DNA from: Verrucomicrobiota bacterium
GTDB lineage: Bacteria; Verrucomicrobiota; Verrucomicrobiia; Limisphaerales; UBA11358
Length of the DNA stretch: 64,000 nt
NCBI GenBank assembly: GCA_049509875.1
Contig: JBEKZM010000015.1
Span: 4,546-68,545, forward strand
Reading direction: 5' to 3'
A program made the position numbers and the translations under genes. Within the stretch, counting starts at the first letter, position 1. Every line of letters begins with the position of its first letter. Shown here piece after piece: positions 9,734 through 44,196 of this stretch. The notes beneath the pieces are model-generated. The model saw nothing but the letters and a program-made list of their open reading frames with translations. It was not told the DNA's origin and did not search any database.

Positions 9734-11308
9734 TTACTTCCAATAGTTCCAGTCCACCTCCGGAAAGAGATTATCGCGCGATTCGATTTCGGTGAGCCAG
9801 GGCTCGTTGATGCCGGTGACGGTAAGCTGTTCGTGCAGGGCGATGAAGCGGAGCAAGTGATCCTTCACGCGGCGGCGGGCGTATTCGGGGCTGGTCTTGG
9901 CGCGCAGGATGAAGGGCCAGTCGCTGGCCTGGGCGAGCAGCAGTTCGCGCGCGGCTTGTTTCAGCGTCCGGGCCACCAAACCGTGGGCGCGGGGATATTG
10001 CCGGGCCAGTTCGGTCATGCGTTCCTGTGCCACTTGCAGGTGCGGGTAAATCCACTCGTTTGATTCATTGAGCCACACGCGCCAGTAACCCTCCTCGCCC
10101 CACGAGGACGCGCCGGGCGTGGCAATTTGATTGGTGGGATGGAGCCGTAGATAGCCGCGGGGTGTGATCAAGGACAGCGTGGATTGCTGCTCCTGGCAGA
10201 GCTTGCGCACGAGGAAGTCGAGAAATTCCGGGCCTTCATACCACCAATGGCCGAACAATTCGGCATCGTAGGGCGCGACGATGATCGGCGGCCGGTCGAG
10301 GATGCTTTCCAGCTTGCGGACCTGCGCGACGCGTTCGTCGAGGAAATGCCGGGCATGGTCACTGGCGGTGGCCAGGGCGTGGTCCCGCTGGTAAATTTGT
10401 TTCTCGCCGACGCCGGTAATGCGGTAGTACTTGATGCCGGTGAACCCGCGGTTGTCCGGCGACGGCAGATGTGGCCGGACGTAATCGAAGTCCAGATCGA
10501 AGCCGATGTCGCGGTAGAAATCGCGGTATCGCCAGTCACCGGGATAGCCTTCGTGCTTGCTCCAGACCTGGCGGGAGGAATCGAAATCGCGTCCGAAGGC
10601 CGCCACGCCGTTGGGCGCGTAGATGGGGGCGAAGGTGCTGTAGCGCGGGCGCGGGGTGGCGTGCAACAGGCCATGGGTATCGAGAATGAACCAGCGGATG
10701 TTCGCCTCCTGCAAGAAATCCTCGACGCCGGCCGAATAGGCGCATTCAGGCAGCCAGATGCCGGAAGGATCGCAGCCGAAACAACTGCGGTAATGGTCGC
10801 GGGCGGTGAGGATTTGTGCGCGGACGGAAGGCGGATGATTGCCCAGCAATGGCAACAGGCCGTGCGTGGCGGCGGTGGTGATGATTTCCAGCGTGCCCGC
10901 GTCCTGCAACAGCCGGAAGGCCTGCACGAGGTCGCCATTGTATTGCCGCCAGACCTCGCGCGCCCGCACGAATTTGTCGTGATACATCCAGGCGAGATCG
11001 CGGAAGGCGCGGTCCCAATGCGTGCGATGAATTTCCTTTTCCGCGAGGTCAATGAGGCCGTCCAGATGCCGCGCGTAACGCTGACACAGCAACGGGTCGC
11101 GCAGCATGAAGCAGAGGGTGGGCGACAGCGAGACAGTGAGGCGGGCGGGCAGGCCGTCGCGCAGCCAACCGTTGAAAATCTGGATGAGCGGCAGATAGGT
11201 TTCGGTGATGCCCTCAAAGAGCCAGCTTTCCTCAAGGAATTTTTCGTGCTCCGGATGCCGTACAAACGGCAGGTGCGCGTGCAGGACCAATGAGAGATAG
11301 CCGGGCAT
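9734..11308 (-). CDS. Glycoside hydrolase family 57 (1,4-alpha-glucan branching enzyme type)
   Basis: MPGYLSLVLHAHLPFVRHPEHEKFLEESWLFEGITETYLPLI is the typical GH57 branching-enzyme N-terminus. The ORF is 524 aa. Confidence 0.9.
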   Translation of the reverse strand: MPGYLSLVLHAHLPFVRHPEHEKFLEESWLFEGITETYLPLIQIFNGWLRDGLPARLTVSLSPTLCFMLRDPLLCQRYARHLDGLIDLAEKEIHRTHWDRAFRDLAWMYHDKFVRAREVWRQYNGDLVQAFRLLQDAGTLEIITTAATHGLLPLLGNHPPSVRAQILTARDHYRSCFGCDPSGIWLPECAYSAGVEDFLQEANIRWFILDTHGLLHATPRPRYSTFAPIYAPNGVAAFGRDFDSSRQVWSKHEGYPGDWRYRDFYRDIGFDLDFDYVRPHLPSPDNRGFTGIKYYRITGVGEKQIYQRDHALATASDHARHFLDERVAQVRKLESILDRPPIIVAPYDAELFGHWWYEGPEFLDFLVRKLCQEQQSTLSLITPRGYLRLHPTNQIATPGASSWGEEGYWRVWLNESNEWIYPHLQVAQERMTELARQYPRAHGLVARTLKQAARELLLAQASDWPFILRAKTSPEYARRRVKDHLLRFIALHEQLTVTGINEPWLTEIESRDNLFPEVDWNYWK

Positions 11309-11323
11309 GTCGCAATAAAATTG

Positions 11324-11560
11324 TTAGAGGTCCAATATGTCCGAAATCCAATCGGCAATGGCCCGCGCGCGAAGGAGCACCACGAAACCAATGAGGGACG
11401 GGACCAGGCGCACCAGGAGCGGAATAAGTCGCACCGGGACACGGCGGCCCGGGATGGAGCAACTGGCCCAATACAGGCCCAGTTCCAGGATGGTGACGAC
11501 AATACAAAGGACGCCGATCAGCCGGACCAGCGTCATGGCTCCGCGTTGGGGCGCGTCCAT
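11324..11560 (-). CDS. Small hypothetical 2-TM membrane protein
   Basis: A 78-aa ORF packed tightly between the DUF4912 stop (11565) and the GH57 start (11308). It has two hydrophobic segments (LVRLIGVLCIVVTILELGLYW and LIPLLVRLVPSLIGFVVLL). I recognise no family. Confidence 0.4.
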   Translation of the reverse strand: MDAPQRGAMTLVRLIGVLCIVVTILELGLYWASCSIPGRRVPVRLIPLLVRLVPSLIGFVVLLRARAIADWISDILDL

Positions 11561-15171: not shown

Positions 15172-15292
15172 CCCGACCTCCAACATTGGATGCACATTGA
15201 GGCCATGAACGCGCATGCTGGGAGCGCCGGTCTCCGACCCGGCTCGATCCTATTGCAGCCATCCAACGAGCCGGGTCAGAGACCGGCGCTCC
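15172..15292 (+). repeat. About 120-nt composite repeat B1: a 50-nt conserved flank plus a REP-B inverted doublet
   Basis: The arms GGAGCGCCGGTCTCCGACCCGGCTCG and CGAGCCGGGTCAGAGACCGGCGCTCC (15221..15292) flank the loop ATCCTATTGCAGCCATCCAA. The flank is CCCCGACCTCCAACATTGGATGCACATTGAGGCCATGAACGCGCATGCTG. A near-identical copy lies in reverse orientation at 44077..44196. Confidence 0.75.
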
Positions 15293-23091: not shown

Positions 23092-23311
23092 GGAGCGCCG
23101 AGCATTGCTCGGCCCGGGCTAATTAAAGCGTGTCGCTCTCCGGACGGATAGTGGTTGGTCGGGGACCACCTGATTCTTCTTCAGGTTTTCCACACGTTGA
23201 GGCGCGCGGGCCGAGCAATGCTCGGCGCTCCGTTGCGGAGACGGACACGCCGGGTCGCGCTTGGTGGTCCACGCGTTGAGACATACCGGCCGAGCAATGC
23301 TCGGCGCTCCG
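23092..23311. repeat. Composite REP-A cluster, left: one forward and two reverse REP-A hairpins
   Basis: The forward unit is GGAGCGCCGAGCATTGCTCGGCCCGG (23092..23117). The reverse units TCCACrCGTTGAG-N7-GGCCGAGCAATGCTCGGCGCTCCG lie at 23189..23232 and 23268..23311. The hairpin is CCGAGC-ATT-GCTCGG. Confidence 0.85.
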
Positions 23312-23324
23312 GCAGCGATCCAGT

Positions 23325-24023
23325 TTATGGTACCAAGCCATCGGGAATGATCAGCCGGCGGTATTGGTCCCTAAACCGGGCGCTGCTGGACGGCCCCTCT
23401 GGCAAGCCAAGCCTGGCTTTGATTGGGTTGCTTTCAATATCGTGAGCCGCTTTCTGCTCCTGCTCCGGGTTGCGCATGAAGCTGTCCCAGTATTCGCGCT
23501 GCCAAAAGGAACCGTCGCGACCCAGAATGCGATTGGCTTGGAGAGCCATAATGGACTTCCAGTTTTGAAGGATTTTGGCAAGCAGCCAATCCCAGACGTG
23601 GACAAGCACGTGGAAATGATTTGGCATTACGCACCAAGCAAGCAACTCATATCGCTTGTGATGGTGAAATAAAGATGCCCGCTCAACGGCTTGGGCAATC
23701 TGGGGCAGGCGTAGCCAGCATTCGCCAAAGCCGCGGTCCAGGTATGATTCCAGCTCCTTGCGGCGTGCCCGGGTATCCTCAATCTCCAGCAGATGTTTCC
23801 ATTCGGAGCGCCGGGAAGCAGGCAACGAATTCACCAATCTCAACGTGATAAATTGAACCAATCCGGGCTTGTCGCAATGCGGAAGATAACCGCGCTCGTG
23901 CCAGCCGAGAAAGCCATGGGCACGATCTTCGGCGGTGAGCGGCTCGTCCCACCGGTTCTTTTCGTAAACCAGTTCACGGAGGTACTCGCGTTTTCCAGCC
24001 GGCGGGCGCTTCAATTGCGGCAT
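23325..24023 (-). CDS. REP-associated tyrosine transposase (RAYT; IS200/IS605 TnpA-like HUH Y1 enzyme), copy 1
   Basis: GWHERGYLPHCD, the HUH motif VMPNHFHVLVHV, the catalytic Tyr region FWQREYWDSFMRN, and ESNPIKARL. I prefer the ATG at 24023 (MPQLKRPP...), because the track ORF start at 24110 reads through a REP. Confidence 0.85.
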   Translation of the reverse strand: MPQLKRPPAGKREYLRELVYEKNRWDEPLTAEDRAHGFLGWHERGYLPHCDKPGLVQFITLRLVNSLPASRRSEWKHLLEIEDTRARRKELESYLDRGFGECWLRLPQIAQAVERASLFHHHKRYELLAWCVMPNHFHVLVHVWDWLLAKILQNWKSIMALQANRILGRDGSFWQREYWDSFMRNPEQEQKAAHDIESNPIKARLGLPEGPSSSARFRDQYRRLIIPDGLVP

Positions 24024-24024
24024 A

Positions 24025-24244
24025 GGAGCGCCGAGCATTGCTCGGCCCGGATTGATTAAAGCATATGACCTTCCCGCCGGGCAATAGTAGGTTGGCAGCG
24101 CCTGGCCCACTTTTCAGTCGTTCCACGCGTTGAGGCGCGCGGGCCGAGCAATGCTCGGCGCTCCGGTGCGGGGACGGTCACGCTGGGCCGCGCTTGAGGT
24201 TCCACGCGTTGGGGCACACGGGCCGAGCAATGCTCGGCGCTCCG
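24025..24244. repeat. Composite REP-A cluster, right: same architecture as 23092..23311
   Basis: The forward REP is at 24025..24050. The reverse units are at 24122..24165 and 24201..24244. Anchored on track ORFs 23325..24110 and 24130..24453 (the recurring GRAMLGAP translation). Confidence 0.85.
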
Positions 24245-24253
24245 GACGCGCAC

Positions 24254-25120
24254 TCACTCACGGGAACGGTTGTCGTAGAGTTCCTTCGACAATTGTTCCA
24301 ACTGTTTCCGCTGGGCAGTCGAAAGGCTTTCGAGACCATCCCGCGAAATCTTGTCCAGCAGCTCATCCATTTGGGCGATCTTTTGGTTACGCTCGCGGTT
24401 TGCCTCATATCGGCGCGCCCGTTCGCCGCCCGCCGGCTCTGCTTTGTTTTTAAACGGCCACTTAAAGCAGCAAAGCGGGTCGCGAATCAAAATGACCAGG
24501 ATGATCGACGACAAGATCATTACCGCCGCAAATGTCCCGGGAGCCGCCCGGATCAATCGCGGATACATCGCGGCTGCCACGAGAAGACCGACCATGGCGC
24601 CGCCGAGATGAGCATCGTGGCCGAGGTTGCCGGCCTGGCGGCGGTGGGCGGCGAATGAGCCCACGAGGAAGATGGGCGCATATAAATAACCGGGCACGCC
24701 GAAAGGGAACGGGAACATGATGATGTTGTTCCCGGGCATCAGGAAAATGGACGCGAAAATAATGCCGCAGACGCCGCCGGACGCCCCCAGCGCCCGGTAT
24801 TCGTGGTGGCGATGAACGATCAGCGACAAGAGTGAGCCGCCGACAATCGAGGAGCCGTAAATCAGCAGCAGGGTCCCGGCTCCGTAGAGCGATTCGATGA
24901 TCCGGGCGAAACTGAAGAAGCTGAAGGCGTTGAAGGCAAAGTGCAGCCAGTCGAGGTGAATCAGGCCGGACGTGAATATCCGGTGGTACTCCTTGCGCAC
25001 CAGAATGGCCTGGGGATCAAACATCCAACCCTCGCGCAGGTCCGGCCGTTGAAACGCGTAAATTGTGGCCAGCGCGGTGATGATCAGGACGGCAATGGTC
25101 GCGGGGGCGTGCATCACCAC
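24254..25120 (-). CDS. Rhomboid-family intramembrane serine protease with a C-terminal cytoplasmic coiled tail
   Basis: Six or more TM segments, the catalytic GASGGVCGI and the His region AHLGGAMVGLL. The C-terminal tail ...IAQMDELLDKISRDGLESLSTAQRKQLEQLSKELYDN is helical and charged. Confidence 0.85.
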   Translation of the reverse strand: MVMHAPATIAVLIITALATIYAFQRPDLREGWMFDPQAILVRKEYHRIFTSGLIHLDWLHFAFNAFSFFSFARIIESLYGAGTLLLIYGSSIVGGSLLSLIVHRHHEYRALGASGGVCGIIFASIFLMPGNNIIMFPFPFGVPGYLYAPIFLVGSFAAHRRQAGNLGHDAHLGGAMVGLLVAAAMYPRLIRAAPGTFAAVMILSSIILVILIRDPLCCFKWPFKNKAEPAGGERARRYEANRERNQKIAQMDELLDKISRDGLESLSTAQRKQLEQLSKELYDNRSRE

Positions 25121-25890
25121 ATGGAGCGCCGGTCTCCGACCCGGCCCGTTGGAAAGGTCAACCGCCGATATTCATCCCTGAACCGCGCGCTGCTGAACGG
25201 CCCCTCTTCGGGCAGGCGGCAAAGCTCGGCCTTGAGCGGGTTGTTTTCAATGTAGTGAATGGCTTTCTGCTCCTGCTCTTCGTCGCGCAGGAAGGTGTCC
25301 CAGTACTCGCGCTGCCAGCGCAATTGGAGCGCCAGTCTCCGACCCGGCCCGTCGAACTTCGGATCGCCGTCGAGCCGGGCCGGAGACCGGCGCTCCGTCA
25401 TGACATCCACCGCCTGTGTGGCGATAAATCGTTTCCAACTTTGCATGATCTTTCCCAACGGCGTCATTCGCACGTTTACGAGCACATGAACGTGGTTGGG
25501 CATCACGCACCAGGCCTGAAGGTCATAGCGCTCTCTGTGAAAATGCAGCAAAGTTGTTTCGGCAAGTTCTGCGACGCGTGCCTCCCGCAGCCGGCATTCT
25601 CCTACGCCGCGATCCAAGTACTCCTCTAGTTTCAGGCGGCGATCTCGGATATCCACAAGCTTTAGCAGATGTTCCCACTCAGCGCGCCGGCTGGCCGGCA
25701 TTGAATCGTGGAGGCGGATGGTGACCAACTGAGTCAGATTTGGAAAATCACAATGGGGCAGATAGCCACGTTCGTGCCAGCCAAGAAAGCCCAAGAGACG
25801 CTCGTGCTCGGTCAACGACCGCGACCACCTGTCCTTGTTTTCGACTAAACGGCGAAGATGTTCGCGCTTGGAACGAGTCGGCGTAACCAT
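25114..25890 (-). CDS. REP-associated tyrosine transposase (RAYT), copy 2, carrying an in-frame REP-B doublet
   Basis: GWHERGYLPHCD, the HUH motif VMPNHVHVLVNV, RWQREYWDTFLRD and ENNPLKAEL. I prefer the ATG at 25890 (MVTPTRSKREHL...). By eye, about half of the positions are identical to copy 1. Confidence 0.8.
   Translation of the reverse strand: MVTPTRSKREHLRRLVENKDRWSRSLTEHERLLGFLGWHERGYLPHCDFPNLTQLVTIRLHDSMPASRRAEWEHLLKLVDIRDRRLKLEEYLDRGVGECRLREARVAELAETTLLHFHRERYDLQAWCVMPNHVHVLVNVRMTPLGKIMQSWKRFIATQAVDVMTERRSPARLDGDPKFDGPGRRLALQLRWQREYWDTFLRDEEQEQKAIHYIENNPLKAELCRLPEEGPFSSARFRDEYRRLTFPTGRVGDRRSMW
25123..25146. repeat. Single REP-B unit at the RAYT-2 stop / rhomboid start junction
   Basis: The minus strand reads GCCGGGTCGGAGACCGGCGCTCC, translated as GRVGDRRS at the RAYT-2 C-terminus. 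Confidence 0.7.
25326..25396. repeat. REP-B inverted doublet inside the RAYT-2 coding sequence
   Basis: The minus strand reads GGAGCGCCGGTCTCCGGCCCGGCTCGACGGCGATCCGAAGTTCGACGGGCCGGGTCGGAGACTGGCGCTCC. It is translated as ERRSPARLDGDPKFDGPGRRLAL (aa 240-262). Confidence 0.8.
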
Positions 25891-25937
25891 GCGAGTGGTG
25901 TAACAAAGGCGCGGTTTGGATGCGAGCGCAATTGGAC

Positions 25938-26004
25938 CGCCGGGCTCCGACCCGGCCTGATGGCAGTCCAAATTCCAACGCGCCGGGTCGGAGACCGGCG
26001 CTCC
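25938..26004. repeat. REP-B inverted doublet between the acnA stop and the RAYT-2 start
   Basis: The minus strand reads GGAGCGCCGGTCTCCGACCCGGCGCG...GGCCGGGTCGGAGCCCGGCGG. It starts 5 nt downstream of the acnA stop and may double as its terminator. Confidence 0.7.
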
Positions 26005-39606: not shown

Positions 39607-39632
39607 CGAGCCGGGTCGGAGACCGGCGCTCC
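39607..39632. repeat. Single REP-B unit
   Basis: The minus strand reads GGAGCGCCGGTCTCCGACCCGGCTCG, translated as ERRSPTRL in track ORF 38882..39634. Confidence 0.65.
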
Positions 39633-43461: not shown

Positions 43462-44077
43462 AGCGCAGCGCGACGCCAAAAACGCGCTCGTGAACATTCT
43501 CGTTTTTCCCGGGCTGGGCTCGTTGCGGTCAGGGCGAAGGGTCGCCGGCTGGGGACAAATCATTTTGGTGCTGACTGGCTGCGCCCTGCTGGTGGCCTGG
43601 TTTTTCAAGGAAATGTCCCAATACTATGGTATGATGTTCGGAGACGAGAAACCGAAGGCAATCGGCTGGATCGGCGCAACGGGCGGAGCGCTGTTCGCCA
43701 TTTCCTGGCTGTGGGCTGGCGTAACCAGTCTCAGTTTGTTTCAGGCAGCGTCAAAGCCAAACCCGACGCCGCCGGTGATTCCGCCCGCCGCAAAAATGAA
43801 TCTGGACGCCGACACCCTACGGACCGCATGCGCCTCGCTGCCAAAATGGCAGCGCCACGGCGAAATCATTTCGCGCACGTACGAGTTTGAGGATTTTGTT
43901 GCGGCAATGAAGTTTGTCAACGCCGTGGCCGCCCTGGCCGAACGGGCGCAGCATCATCCCGACATCGACGTGCGCTGGAACAAGGTCACGCTTGCGCTCA
44001 CCACCCACGATGCCGGCGGCCTCACGGAAAAGGACTTTGTGCTGGCCCGCGAATGTGACGGGCAGGCCGGACTTTGA
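43451..44077 (+). CDS. 2-TM PGLGSL-motif domain fused to pterin-4a-carbinolamine dehydratase (PCD/DCoH)
   Basis: The C-terminal half WQRHGEIISRTYEFEDFVAAMKFVNAVAALAERAQHHPDIDVRWNKVTLALTTHDAGGLTEKDF is a canonical PCD core (HHPD). The N-terminal half has two TM helices. The start overlaps the previous ORF by 11 nt. Confidence 0.8.
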   Translation: MRNEAQRDAKNALVNILVFPGLGSLRSGRRVAGWGQIILVLTGCALLVAWFFKEMSQYYGMMFGDEKPKAIGWIGATGGALFAISWLWAGVTSLSLFQAASKPNPTPPVIPPAAKMNLDADTLRTACASLPKWQRHGEIISRTYEFEDFVAAMKFVNAVAALAERAQHHPDIDVRWNKVTLALTTHDAGGLTEKDFVLARECDGQAGL

Positions 44078-44196
44078 GGGCCGGTCTCCGACCCGGCTCG
44101 TTGGATGGCAGCAATAGGATCGAGCCGGGTCGGAGACCGGCGCTCCCAGCGTGCGGGTTCACGGCCGCAATGTGCCTCAATTTTTGGAGTTCGGAG
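44077..44196 (-). repeat. About 120-nt composite repeat B1 (second copy, reverse orientation)
   Basis: GAGGGCCGGTCTCCGACCCGGCTCG-TTGGATGGCAGCAATAGGAT-CGAGCCGGGTCGGAGACCGGCGCTCC plus a 50-nt flank ending ...TTTTTGGAGTTCGGAG. The loop and flank match the reverse complement of 15172..15292 with few changes. Confidence 0.75.

Follow-up and report, generated by a model that had tools for sequence, protein, structure and literature searches.

A REP doublet in the reading frame of a Verrucomicrobiota RAYT gene and its covariation with neighboring REPs

Introduction

Few repeat systems of bacteria are as common as those formed by REPINs and RAYTs. In Pseudomonas, as Bertels and Rainey are said to have described in 2011, REPINs are dispersed, inverted pairs of REPs separated by a short spacer, and the cognate RAYT is flanked by REPs. 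These REPINs are described as extragenic and, to our knowledge, no copy within the ORF of a RAYT has been reported from that system.

The E. coli TnpA_REP of the REPtron is an HUH enzyme with a single catalytic tyrosine, Y115, on helix alphaD, and with N119 (Messing et al. 2012, PDB 4ER8, PMC3479197). According to a later comparative study (PMC6006769), the REP-interacting region of this protein comprises K82, T85, H86, K91, R97, and R98 (H86 and K91 appear in Fig. S7C), whereas W94/Q95 constitutes the guide-binding region. The same study proposes insertions between alphaC and beta4 in subclasses 2.2 and 2.6 as possible aids to DNA binding.

The closest described case also comes from that study (Quentin, Siguier, Chandler, and Fichant 2018, BMC Genomics 19:475, PMC6006769), in which tnpA_REP genes belonging to TnpA_Y1 subclass 2.4 were found to contain REPs inserted in frame; this subclass is equivalent to group 4 of the RAYTs in Bertels et al. 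2017. The authors of the study modeled the insertion as a loop at the periphery of the protein that would have little influence on activity. When the literature was searched for other reports of REPs within RAYT genes, only this paper was found. Since in-frame REPs in RAYT genes were already published in 2018, the kind of arrangement analyzed below is known. Short palindromic repeats or their dimers that add 20 to 30 aa in frame to apparently functional genes have been described for the Rickettsia palindromic elements and for intragenic GTAG/CGTC REPs (Di Nocera et al. 2013, PMC3733652).

Results

RAYT-2 and its in-frame REP-B doublet

We analyzed a 64,000-nt stretch of contig JBEKZM010000015.1 (assembly GCA_049509875.1, Verrucomicrobiota bacterium), hereafter the window. 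The features discussed are collected in Table 1. RAYT-2 is a REP-associated tyrosine transposase, for which binding and cleavage of REP single-stranded DNA are predicted. Its true CDS is 25114-25890, with a start confirmed by an identical protein of 258 aa (P0001). The Pfam family PF01797 matched the protein with 23.7 bits (cutoff, 23) and the NCBIfam model NF047646 (REP_Tyr_transpos) with 70.5 bits, which is under the cutoff of 80. When the structural model was compared with the PDB using Foldseek, the top match was 4er8_A (E = 1.7e-4, probability 1.00, TM for the target 0.57). HMMER placed IHYIENNP of RAYT-2 on VDYIYINP of 4ER8, with Y213 and N217 of YIENNP equivalent to Y115 and N119.

Table 1. 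Features of the window discussed in the text (positions count from the first letter of the window)
Feature	Position	Strand	Remarks
RAYT-2 CDS, HUH/Y1 REP-associated tyrosine transposase, 258 aa	25114..25890	-	profile, 4ER8, and Foldseek matches
HuH codons, H133-V-H135 of NHVH	25486..25494	-	align to the HUH of 4ER8
In-frame REP-B inverted doublet (REPIN) in RAYT-2	25326..25396	-	arms 25326-25348 (1 mismatch to GGAGCGCCGGTCTCCGRCCCGGC) and 25374-25396 (0 mismatches); spacer 25 nt
WQREYWD, conserved W motif opening beta4, directly after the insert	25297..25317	-	aligns to IWQPRFWEH of 4ER8
Catalytic Tyr codon TAC, Y213 of IHYIENNP	25252..25254	-	aligned to Y115 of E. coli TnpA_REP
REP-B singlet at the RAYT-2 3' end	25123..25145	+	codes for the C-terminal GRVGDRRS tail
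REP-B doublet between an aconitase-like ORF and RAYT-2	25934..26004		~40 nt upstream of the RAYT-2 start
Dispersed REP-B doublet	15221..15292		
Dispersed REP-B doublet	44075..44146		spacer as in 15221-15292, opposite orientation, 1 mismatch
Dispersed REP-B singlet	39610..39632	-	

The REP-B pattern GGAGCGCCGGTCTCCGRCCCGGC has 10 matches in the window, as opposed to 0 expected from 100 shuffles. One doublet, an inverted repeat of 71 nt, falls within the RAYT-2 ORF on the minus strand, where it codes for residues E166-L188 (258-aa numbering) and is translated as ERRSPARLDGDPKFDGPGRRLAL. It has the architecture of a REPIN unit, namely two inverted REP units with arms of 23 to 26 nt around a spacer of 25 nt, and shares this architecture with the three extragenic doublets. 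The original prediction for this locus had claimed such a doublet in frame within RAYT-2, read through as a peptide; the claim holds, and the peptide strings and arm sequences that it quoted are exact. Its figure of about 21 extra residues relative to the paralog RAYT-1 (23325-24023, 54% identical) is likewise correct, RAYT-2 being 63 nt (21 codons) longer at the doublet site. At 54% protein identity the DNA flanks of the two genes are not alignable base by base, and the comparison gives a net difference of 63 nt but does not recover the original junctions. A clean insertion of the 71-nt unit is not what is seen, since 71 is not a multiple of 3. The prediction had also put the insert just upstream of the catalytic tyrosine motif. 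The insert does end directly before WQREYWD, but that sequence is the W motif of beta4, and the catalytic residue is Y213 in YIENNP, 21 residues past W192 and 25 past the end of the insert.

RAYT-2 is flanked by cognate REPs in the manner of a REPtron, with a doublet upstream and a singlet at its 3' end, and the same is true of most related loci. The upstream doublet is identical to the inner one at 57 of 71 positions. Beyond the window, metagenome contigs that carry the REP-B arm number at least 120, and 50 doublets were counted in 690 kb. In all copies, the head of the repeat is GGAGCG, preceded by variable bases, and the canonical 5' GT[AG]G tag is absent. REP-B works like a tagged REP, though it is not a canonical GTAG REP.

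The insert is shared by a clade of RAYTs

The best 120 database homologs of RAYT-2 were 62 to 72% identical to it and of similar length throughout. Twenty-four were sampled for alignment (60 to 73% identity), and all of them carry a segment at the insert site with the consensus ERRSPxRR, about 9 variable residues, and xAPxRRxALQ. The two conserved halves of this peptide are reverse-complement translations of each other (e.g., ERRTPIR and PNRSSAL).

We also examined 80 genomic loci from GTDB species representatives. The closest 29 (L001-L029) came mostly from Verrucomicrobiia, Limisphaerales, or Pedosphaera MAGs, and a repeat occupies the insert loop in 27 of them, the exceptions being L023 and L028. 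The frame that yields ERR (G-GAG-CGC-CG) is used in 25 of these 27 loci, and the other two, L026 and L027, are frameshifted. One locus in the ERR frame, L015, has a stop codon within one arm. An open frame is retained by 24 of the 27 insert-bearing loci. Avoidance of stop codons was considered as the cause of the constant ERR frame and rejected, all six frames of the arm being open.

A short, 19-aa stretch from WK to W, ending in the consensus LLGRxGxFWQ, is found in RAYT-1, in L023 and L028, and in most scorable distant relatives (L030-L080, 35 to 46% identity), and is therefore regarded as the ancestral state. A few distant relatives have a stretch of 25 to 26 aa, and L075 and L077 have longer loops. 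The insert-free close relatives, comprising L023, L028, and the L180 homolog, look intact.

The comparison of relatives indicates that the insert is an old, inherited insertion that spans a clade of Verrucomicrobiota RAYTs, and is neither native sequence nor a recent private landing. It is not native because the segment of each relative matches that relative's own REP variant and because the short loop is kept elsewhere. Aligning orthologs had been suggested as a check on whether the segment is native: it is present at the same site in relatives of 60 to 73% identity, but in each case matches their own REP, and it is absent from RAYT-1 and from most of the distant relatives. The refuting case that the original prediction had named, the same segment in other genomes, is thus borne out in part. 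The original prediction that a REP-B element landed in the gene of its own enzyme is right in that the insert is a copy of the flanking REP type; however, the event is not particular to this genome.

In a neighbor-joining tree built with the insert masked, the clade has a bootstrap value of 100%, with values mostly below 50 inside it. RAYT-1, which has no insert, pairs with the insert-bearing L024 at 94%. A single gain followed by losses and a small number of gains would fit this tree equally well.

In L077 (Opitutales), a 32-nt repeat occurs in exact copies at positions 9872, 9944, and 10400, of which one is in the loop and two are upstream of the gene. L075 presents a weaker case of a locus with its own repeat in the same loop. 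The loop sequences of L077 and L075 match their own flanks, and the same loop has been hit independently by these unrelated repeats. The distance from HuH to W is extended in ~35 of ~85 scorable representatives of clusters formed at 50% identity, and the added peptides are often visibly repeated.

The arms of the insert follow the local REPs

The stem positions of the arms vary between loci, as illustrated by CCGAACTCCGATTCGG in L007, CCGGCTTCCAGCACGG in L008, and CCGAGCACCGCCTCGG in L010. Each arm was compared with its best match inside the 2-kb flanks, and mismatches were counted out of 23. The left arm had 1.2 mismatches to its own flanks as opposed to 4.2 to other loci; for the right arm, the respective values were 0.9 and 4.1. 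When the assignment of arms to loci was permuted 20,000 times, a mismatch total as low as the observed one never occurred. The two inner arms are also complementary to each other, with 90.9% of cells paired, whereas controls slid by 1 to 3 columns gave 28 to 44%. Changes affecting both sides of the stem were found in 44 cells versus 15.6 in column shuffles (0/500).

Whole inner doublets are usually 75 to 88% identical to the flanking doublets, the differences being accounted for by the spacers. The inner doublet of L009, in contrast to this general pattern, is identical to the doublet just downstream at 67 of 71 positions, spacer included, which indicates recent copying as a unit. Since in most loci it is the arms, and not the spacers, that resemble the flanking doublets, selection on the arms would account for the pattern no less well than copying of whole doublets.

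The constraint on the insert acts on its nucleotides and not on the encoded peptide. Fourfold-degenerate third positions are fixed in the arms (C at column 7 in 23 of 23 loci and G at column 22 in 22 of 23), while the encoded residues vary with the REP stem, taking the values S/T/A/L/P at one codon and T/I/D/N/A/P/S at another. Residues encoded by the spacer lack conservation, and the spacer keeps only its length class.

The gene remains under purifying selection

Over the 34 codons from WQREYWD through the catalytic Tyr, the insert-bearing loci gave pN = 0.122 and pS = 0.773, with a pN/pS ratio of 0.158. For a block of 60 codons upstream of the insert, pN/pS was 0.147 and pS was 0.67. With pS values of 0.77 downstream and 0.67 upstream, neutral sites are nearly randomized between loci. 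At this level of synonymous divergence, arms that are nearly perfect palindromes matching the local REP cannot be passive relics, and must be either renewed or constrained.

Both HuH histidines are invariant in 74 of 74 relatives, and the catalytic Tyr is kept in 72 of 74. Substitution patterns thus show the codons past the insert to be under purifying selection, and the RAYT gene, as far as these patterns tell, stays functional with the insert. The original prediction was right that the reading frame is preserved, and the catalytic residues that follow the insert are intact. The spacer of the inner doublet measures 25 nt in 17 of 23 loci and 19, 22, or 28 nt in the rest, and its length is 1 modulo 3 in 22 of 23, a count that is biased by having taken in only loci with the W motif in frame with HuH but that agrees with the pN/pS values all the same. 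Spacers of dispersed REP-B doublets in the metagenome contigs are 24 to 28 nt long, and 17 of 50 have a length of 1 modulo 3.

The insert lies in a surface loop

An AF2 model built from 120 homologs (mean pLDDT, 72.7; core, 82 to 92) replaced one built from 26 sequences (pLDDT, 54.9). Its numbering is that of a 259-residue translation and exceeds that of the true protein by 1. In the model, alphaC spans residues 146-165, the insert (166-192) is unstructured with a pLDDT of ~51, beta4 follows at 193-198, and the alphaD helix with the catalytic Tyr spans 205-217. The model agrees with the suggestion, made in the original prediction, of a tolerated loop insertion. In the alignment with 4ER8, the end of the insert corresponds to L90/K91, and the insert loop falls between the positions that correspond to H86 and K91 in the E. 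coli protein. The loop between beta3 and alphaC is short in RAYT-2. The model and the alignment together place the insert in the alphaC-beta4 surface loop, which is predicted to be peripheral and to adjoin the DNA-binding face.

Discussion

The reading that we favor, with some reserve, is that the insert is a tolerated in-frame REPIN that has become resident in the gene and has been kept in step with the REPs of the genome by concerted evolution. A REPIN would have entered the alphaC-beta4 loop in the ancestor of the Verrucomicrobiota RAYT clade. REPs may tend to pile up beside and within the RAYT locus, and selection would then spare in-frame copies in permissive loops only. The inner copy could be updated by exchange with REPINs 200 to 600 nt away, either through gene conversion or through replacement mediated by the RAYT. 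An alternative route of updating would be selection for continued recognition by the RAYT. The Arg-rich peptide would be a by-product, borne in a disordered loop.

A regulatory role of the insert in cis is a less likely explanation. Here, the RAYT would bind or cleave the single-stranded DNA of the REPIN in its own gene, or a hairpin in the mRNA would limit translation or stability, keeping the output low. Selection for recognition would then account for the agreement of the inner arms with the REP variant of the genome. The sense strand of the inner doublet does fold into a very stable RNA hairpin with a 26-bp stem (-64.4 kcal/mol, z = -7.15). The match of the arms, usually without the spacers, to the flanking REPs, the compensatory changes in the arms despite synonymous saturation elsewhere, and the persistence of the insert across the clade at 60 to 73% identity would all be expected of such an element. 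However, a G·U bias of the arm mismatches, which would be a sign of an RNA hairpin, was not found: 17 mismatches were G·U compatible in the sense orientation and 23 in the antisense orientation. With no sense-strand bias, the two G·U pairs of the copy in the window are not evidence for an RNA hairpin. Neither a T-run nor another terminator feature was found 3' of the inner hairpin, and the insert-free relatives look intact, which also argues against a regulatory role.

In a wider form of this idea, which we put forward tentatively and regard as doubtful, the REPIN in the gene would be a selected self-recognition element. Each RAYT of the clade would carry its own substrate, and would sense or act on its own gene. 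If so, the gene might be subject to negative feedback or to strand-specific nicking, or its loop might be lost and restored in a programmed manner. Selection would maintain the agreement of arms and REPs, each gene would be a record of an enzyme and its target, and the coevolution of REP and RAYT specificity could be read from such records.

It is unlikely that the insert was retained for a gain at the level of the protein, with the Arg-rich ERRSPxRR…RRxALQ loop adding contacts to the REP hairpin, such that the target of the enzyme encodes a DNA-binding loop. A protein-level effect is possible, as the neighbors of the loop include residues in contact with the REP hairpin of 4ER8. The peptide contains five Arg residues, it lies between the equivalents of the REP-contacting H86 and K91, and insertions at the same place in subclasses 2.2 and 2.6 have been suggested to take part in DNA binding (PMC6006769). 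Against this, nucleotides rather than residues are conserved, as seen in the fixed fourfold positions and the variable codons, the spacer-encoded residues are not conserved, and the loop was modeled without structure and with low confidence.

Still less probable is that the inverted repeat is native to the gene and served as the master copy that seeded the genomic REP-B population. That the segment is found in relatives from many genomes, and that the local REPs are matched by the inner arms in every case, would agree with such a source. The loop of most of the distant relatives and of RAYT-1, L023, and L028 is short and ancestral, however, and the loops of L077 and L075 hold unrelated repeats that match their own flanks. 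In the window, five extragenic arms match the consensus exactly, whereas both inner arms deviate from it, each at a different position. Moreover, the exact 25-nt inner spacer, which was sought in the metagenome contigs as a sign of mobilization of the in-gene REPIN, had 0 matches. Inactivation by self-targeting, which the original prediction had entertained and in which RAYT-2 would have been killed by the insertion and would have kept its open frame by chance, is rejected as exceedingly improbable because pN/pS past the insert is like that upstream, the catalytic residues are intact, and most insert-bearing loci have an open frame, even though decayed relatives exist (L015 with its stop codon in an arm and the frameshifted L026 and L027).

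The favored reading, a tolerated resident REPIN, can be compared with described systems. E. coli TnpA_REP has the same fold as RAYT-2, and both genes have REP hairpins at their flanks that carry a 5' tag and a stem with a bulge; however, the E. coli protein has 165 aa and lacks the N-terminal region of ~100 aa, its gene has no internal REP, and the tag is GTAG rather than GGAG (PMC3479197). The Rickettsia elements and intragenic GTAG/CGTC REPs reside in unrelated housekeeping genes, such as those for DNA repair and tRNA enzymes (PMC3733652). In RAYT-2, unlike in those cases, the host is the enzyme presumed to mobilize the repeat, and the insert tracks the repeat population.

Subclass 2.4 is the closest likeness. 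According to PMC6006769, the REP there also lies in frame between HuH and Y in a gene flanked by REPs, and RAYT-2, with NHVH, WQ, and YIENNP, has the subclass signature NH[IFV]H / WQ / YIxNNP. Clade-wide fixation at one site, covariation with REP variants, and selection downstream of the insert find no mention in the passages of the paper that were consulted, and neither Verrucomicrobia examples nor the GGAGCGCC head were found in the supplement. What the present analysis adds is the evidence for covariation with local REPs and for purifying selection, together with a different loop and a different clade.

Several differences from subclass 2.4, as described in PMC6006769, were noted. The insertion modeled for subclass 2.4 (Calothrix K9PHU2) is in the beta3-alphaC loop, whereas that of RAYT-2 is in the alphaC-beta4 loop; among our distant representatives, P0270 has an insertion of the beta3-alphaC type. 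The REPs of subclass 2.4 begin with 5' GT[AG]G, as opposed to GGAGCG for the REPs of RAYT-2. Subclass 2.4 has no extension of the core domain, whereas the RAYT-2 clade has a conserved W.FSSARFRDEY tail (WPFSS type), which by its motif resembles the Ser motif of subclasses 2.1, 2.2, 2.3, and 2.6 and not subclass 2.4. The hosts of subclass 2.4 are mainly Cyanobacteria and Bacteroidetes, while those of the RAYT-2 clade are Verrucomicrobiota.

The comparison has consequences for annotation and for experiment. Peptides of the ERRSP…RRxALQ type should be annotated as translated repeats and not as protein motifs. The RAYT clade offers a natural series of matched pairs of enzyme and substrate, in which the loop, being open to recoding or deletion, provides an experimental handle. 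The alphaC-beta4 loop, beside the REP-binding surface, is a recurrent site of landing or tolerance. REPs within the ORFs of RAYT genes extend past the cyanobacterial and Bacteroidetes subclass in which they were described, and past the loop that they occupy there.

REP units translated within RAYT genes

In some relatives of RAYT-2, the REP-associated tyrosine transposase whose alphaC-beta4 loop contains the in-frame REP-B doublet, this loop holds more than two REP units. These relatives comprise locus L024 (1939-2112), where three REP arms were found, and the homologous proteins P0264, P0238 and P0152. In P0264, the distance between HuH and the W motif reaches 138 residues and includes many repeated peptides. 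Such loops are in effect REP arrays translated as part of the enzyme.

REP sequence also encodes protein ends. At its C-terminus, RAYT-2 ends in GRVGDRRSMW, a stretch translated from the 3' REP-B singlet, and its open reading frame shares 7 nt with the beginning of the following minus-strand ORF. REP-encoded C-terminal tails, for example GTPVSDPAR, were found in several homologues as well.

In the inner doublets of four related loci (L003, L004, L029 and L001), the two arms are different REP variants, CCGGTC…GACCCGG versus CCGCTC…GAGCCGG. Because the two differences are compensatory inside each unit's own small hairpin, they hint that constraint falls on the hairpin of the individual REP and not on the long stem of the REPIN.

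Several metagenome-assembled genomes with a Verrucomicrobia-type RAYT (L002, L006, L010, L017, L022, L024 and L079) are titled uncultured Bifidobacterium or Bifidobacteriaceae, which looks like a labelling problem.

Copying of REPINs

In locus L009, the inner doublet (10483-10553) and the doublet directly downstream of the gene (10733-10803) are identical at 67 of 71 positions, including the spacer, which suggests that copying or conversion took place here recently. The identity between inner and flanking doublets is about 75-88% in other loci. Within the window, the dispersed REP-B doublets at 15221-15292 and 44075-44146 have a 26-nt spacer in common, which runs in opposite orientation in the two and differs at a single position; both are copies of a single REPIN.

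REP-A and the catalytic position of RAYT-1

The two REP-A blocks that flank RAYT-1, the paralogue of RAYT-2 that lacks the insert, are direct copies of each other (76-87% identity), and all six units in them are identical across the 23 nt of GGAGCGCCGAGCATTGCTCGGCC. REP-A looks local, in contrast to the dispersed REP-B, since the only further match in the window has three mismatches.

Features of the window
Feature	Position	Description
REP-B doublet	15221-15292
REP-A block, copy 1	23092-23317	~225 nt, three REP-A units, one side of RAYT-1
RAYT-1	23325-24023	minus strand
RAYT-1 codon	23439-23441	GAT, at the expected catalytic Tyr site
REP-A block, copy 2	24025-24250	~225 nt, three REP-A units, other side of RAYT-1
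Next ORF	24254-25120	minus strand
RAYT-2 C-terminal residues	25114-25145	3' REP-B singlet
REP-A match	32643	
REP-B doublet	44075-44146	

RAYT-1 encodes Asp (AHDIESNP) where the catalytic Tyr is expected. Tyr occupies this position in 72 of 74 relatives, and the sole non-Tyr case besides RAYT-1 is a frameshifted locus. RAYT-1 may be catalytically dead, or the Asp codon may be a sequencing error.

In a metagenome contig, L180, the region 10270-11430 contains a RAYT-1-like gene without the insert, preceded by REP-A-like units and followed by REP-B units. This gene has the Tyr, and its neighborhood resembles that of RAYT-1 in the window.
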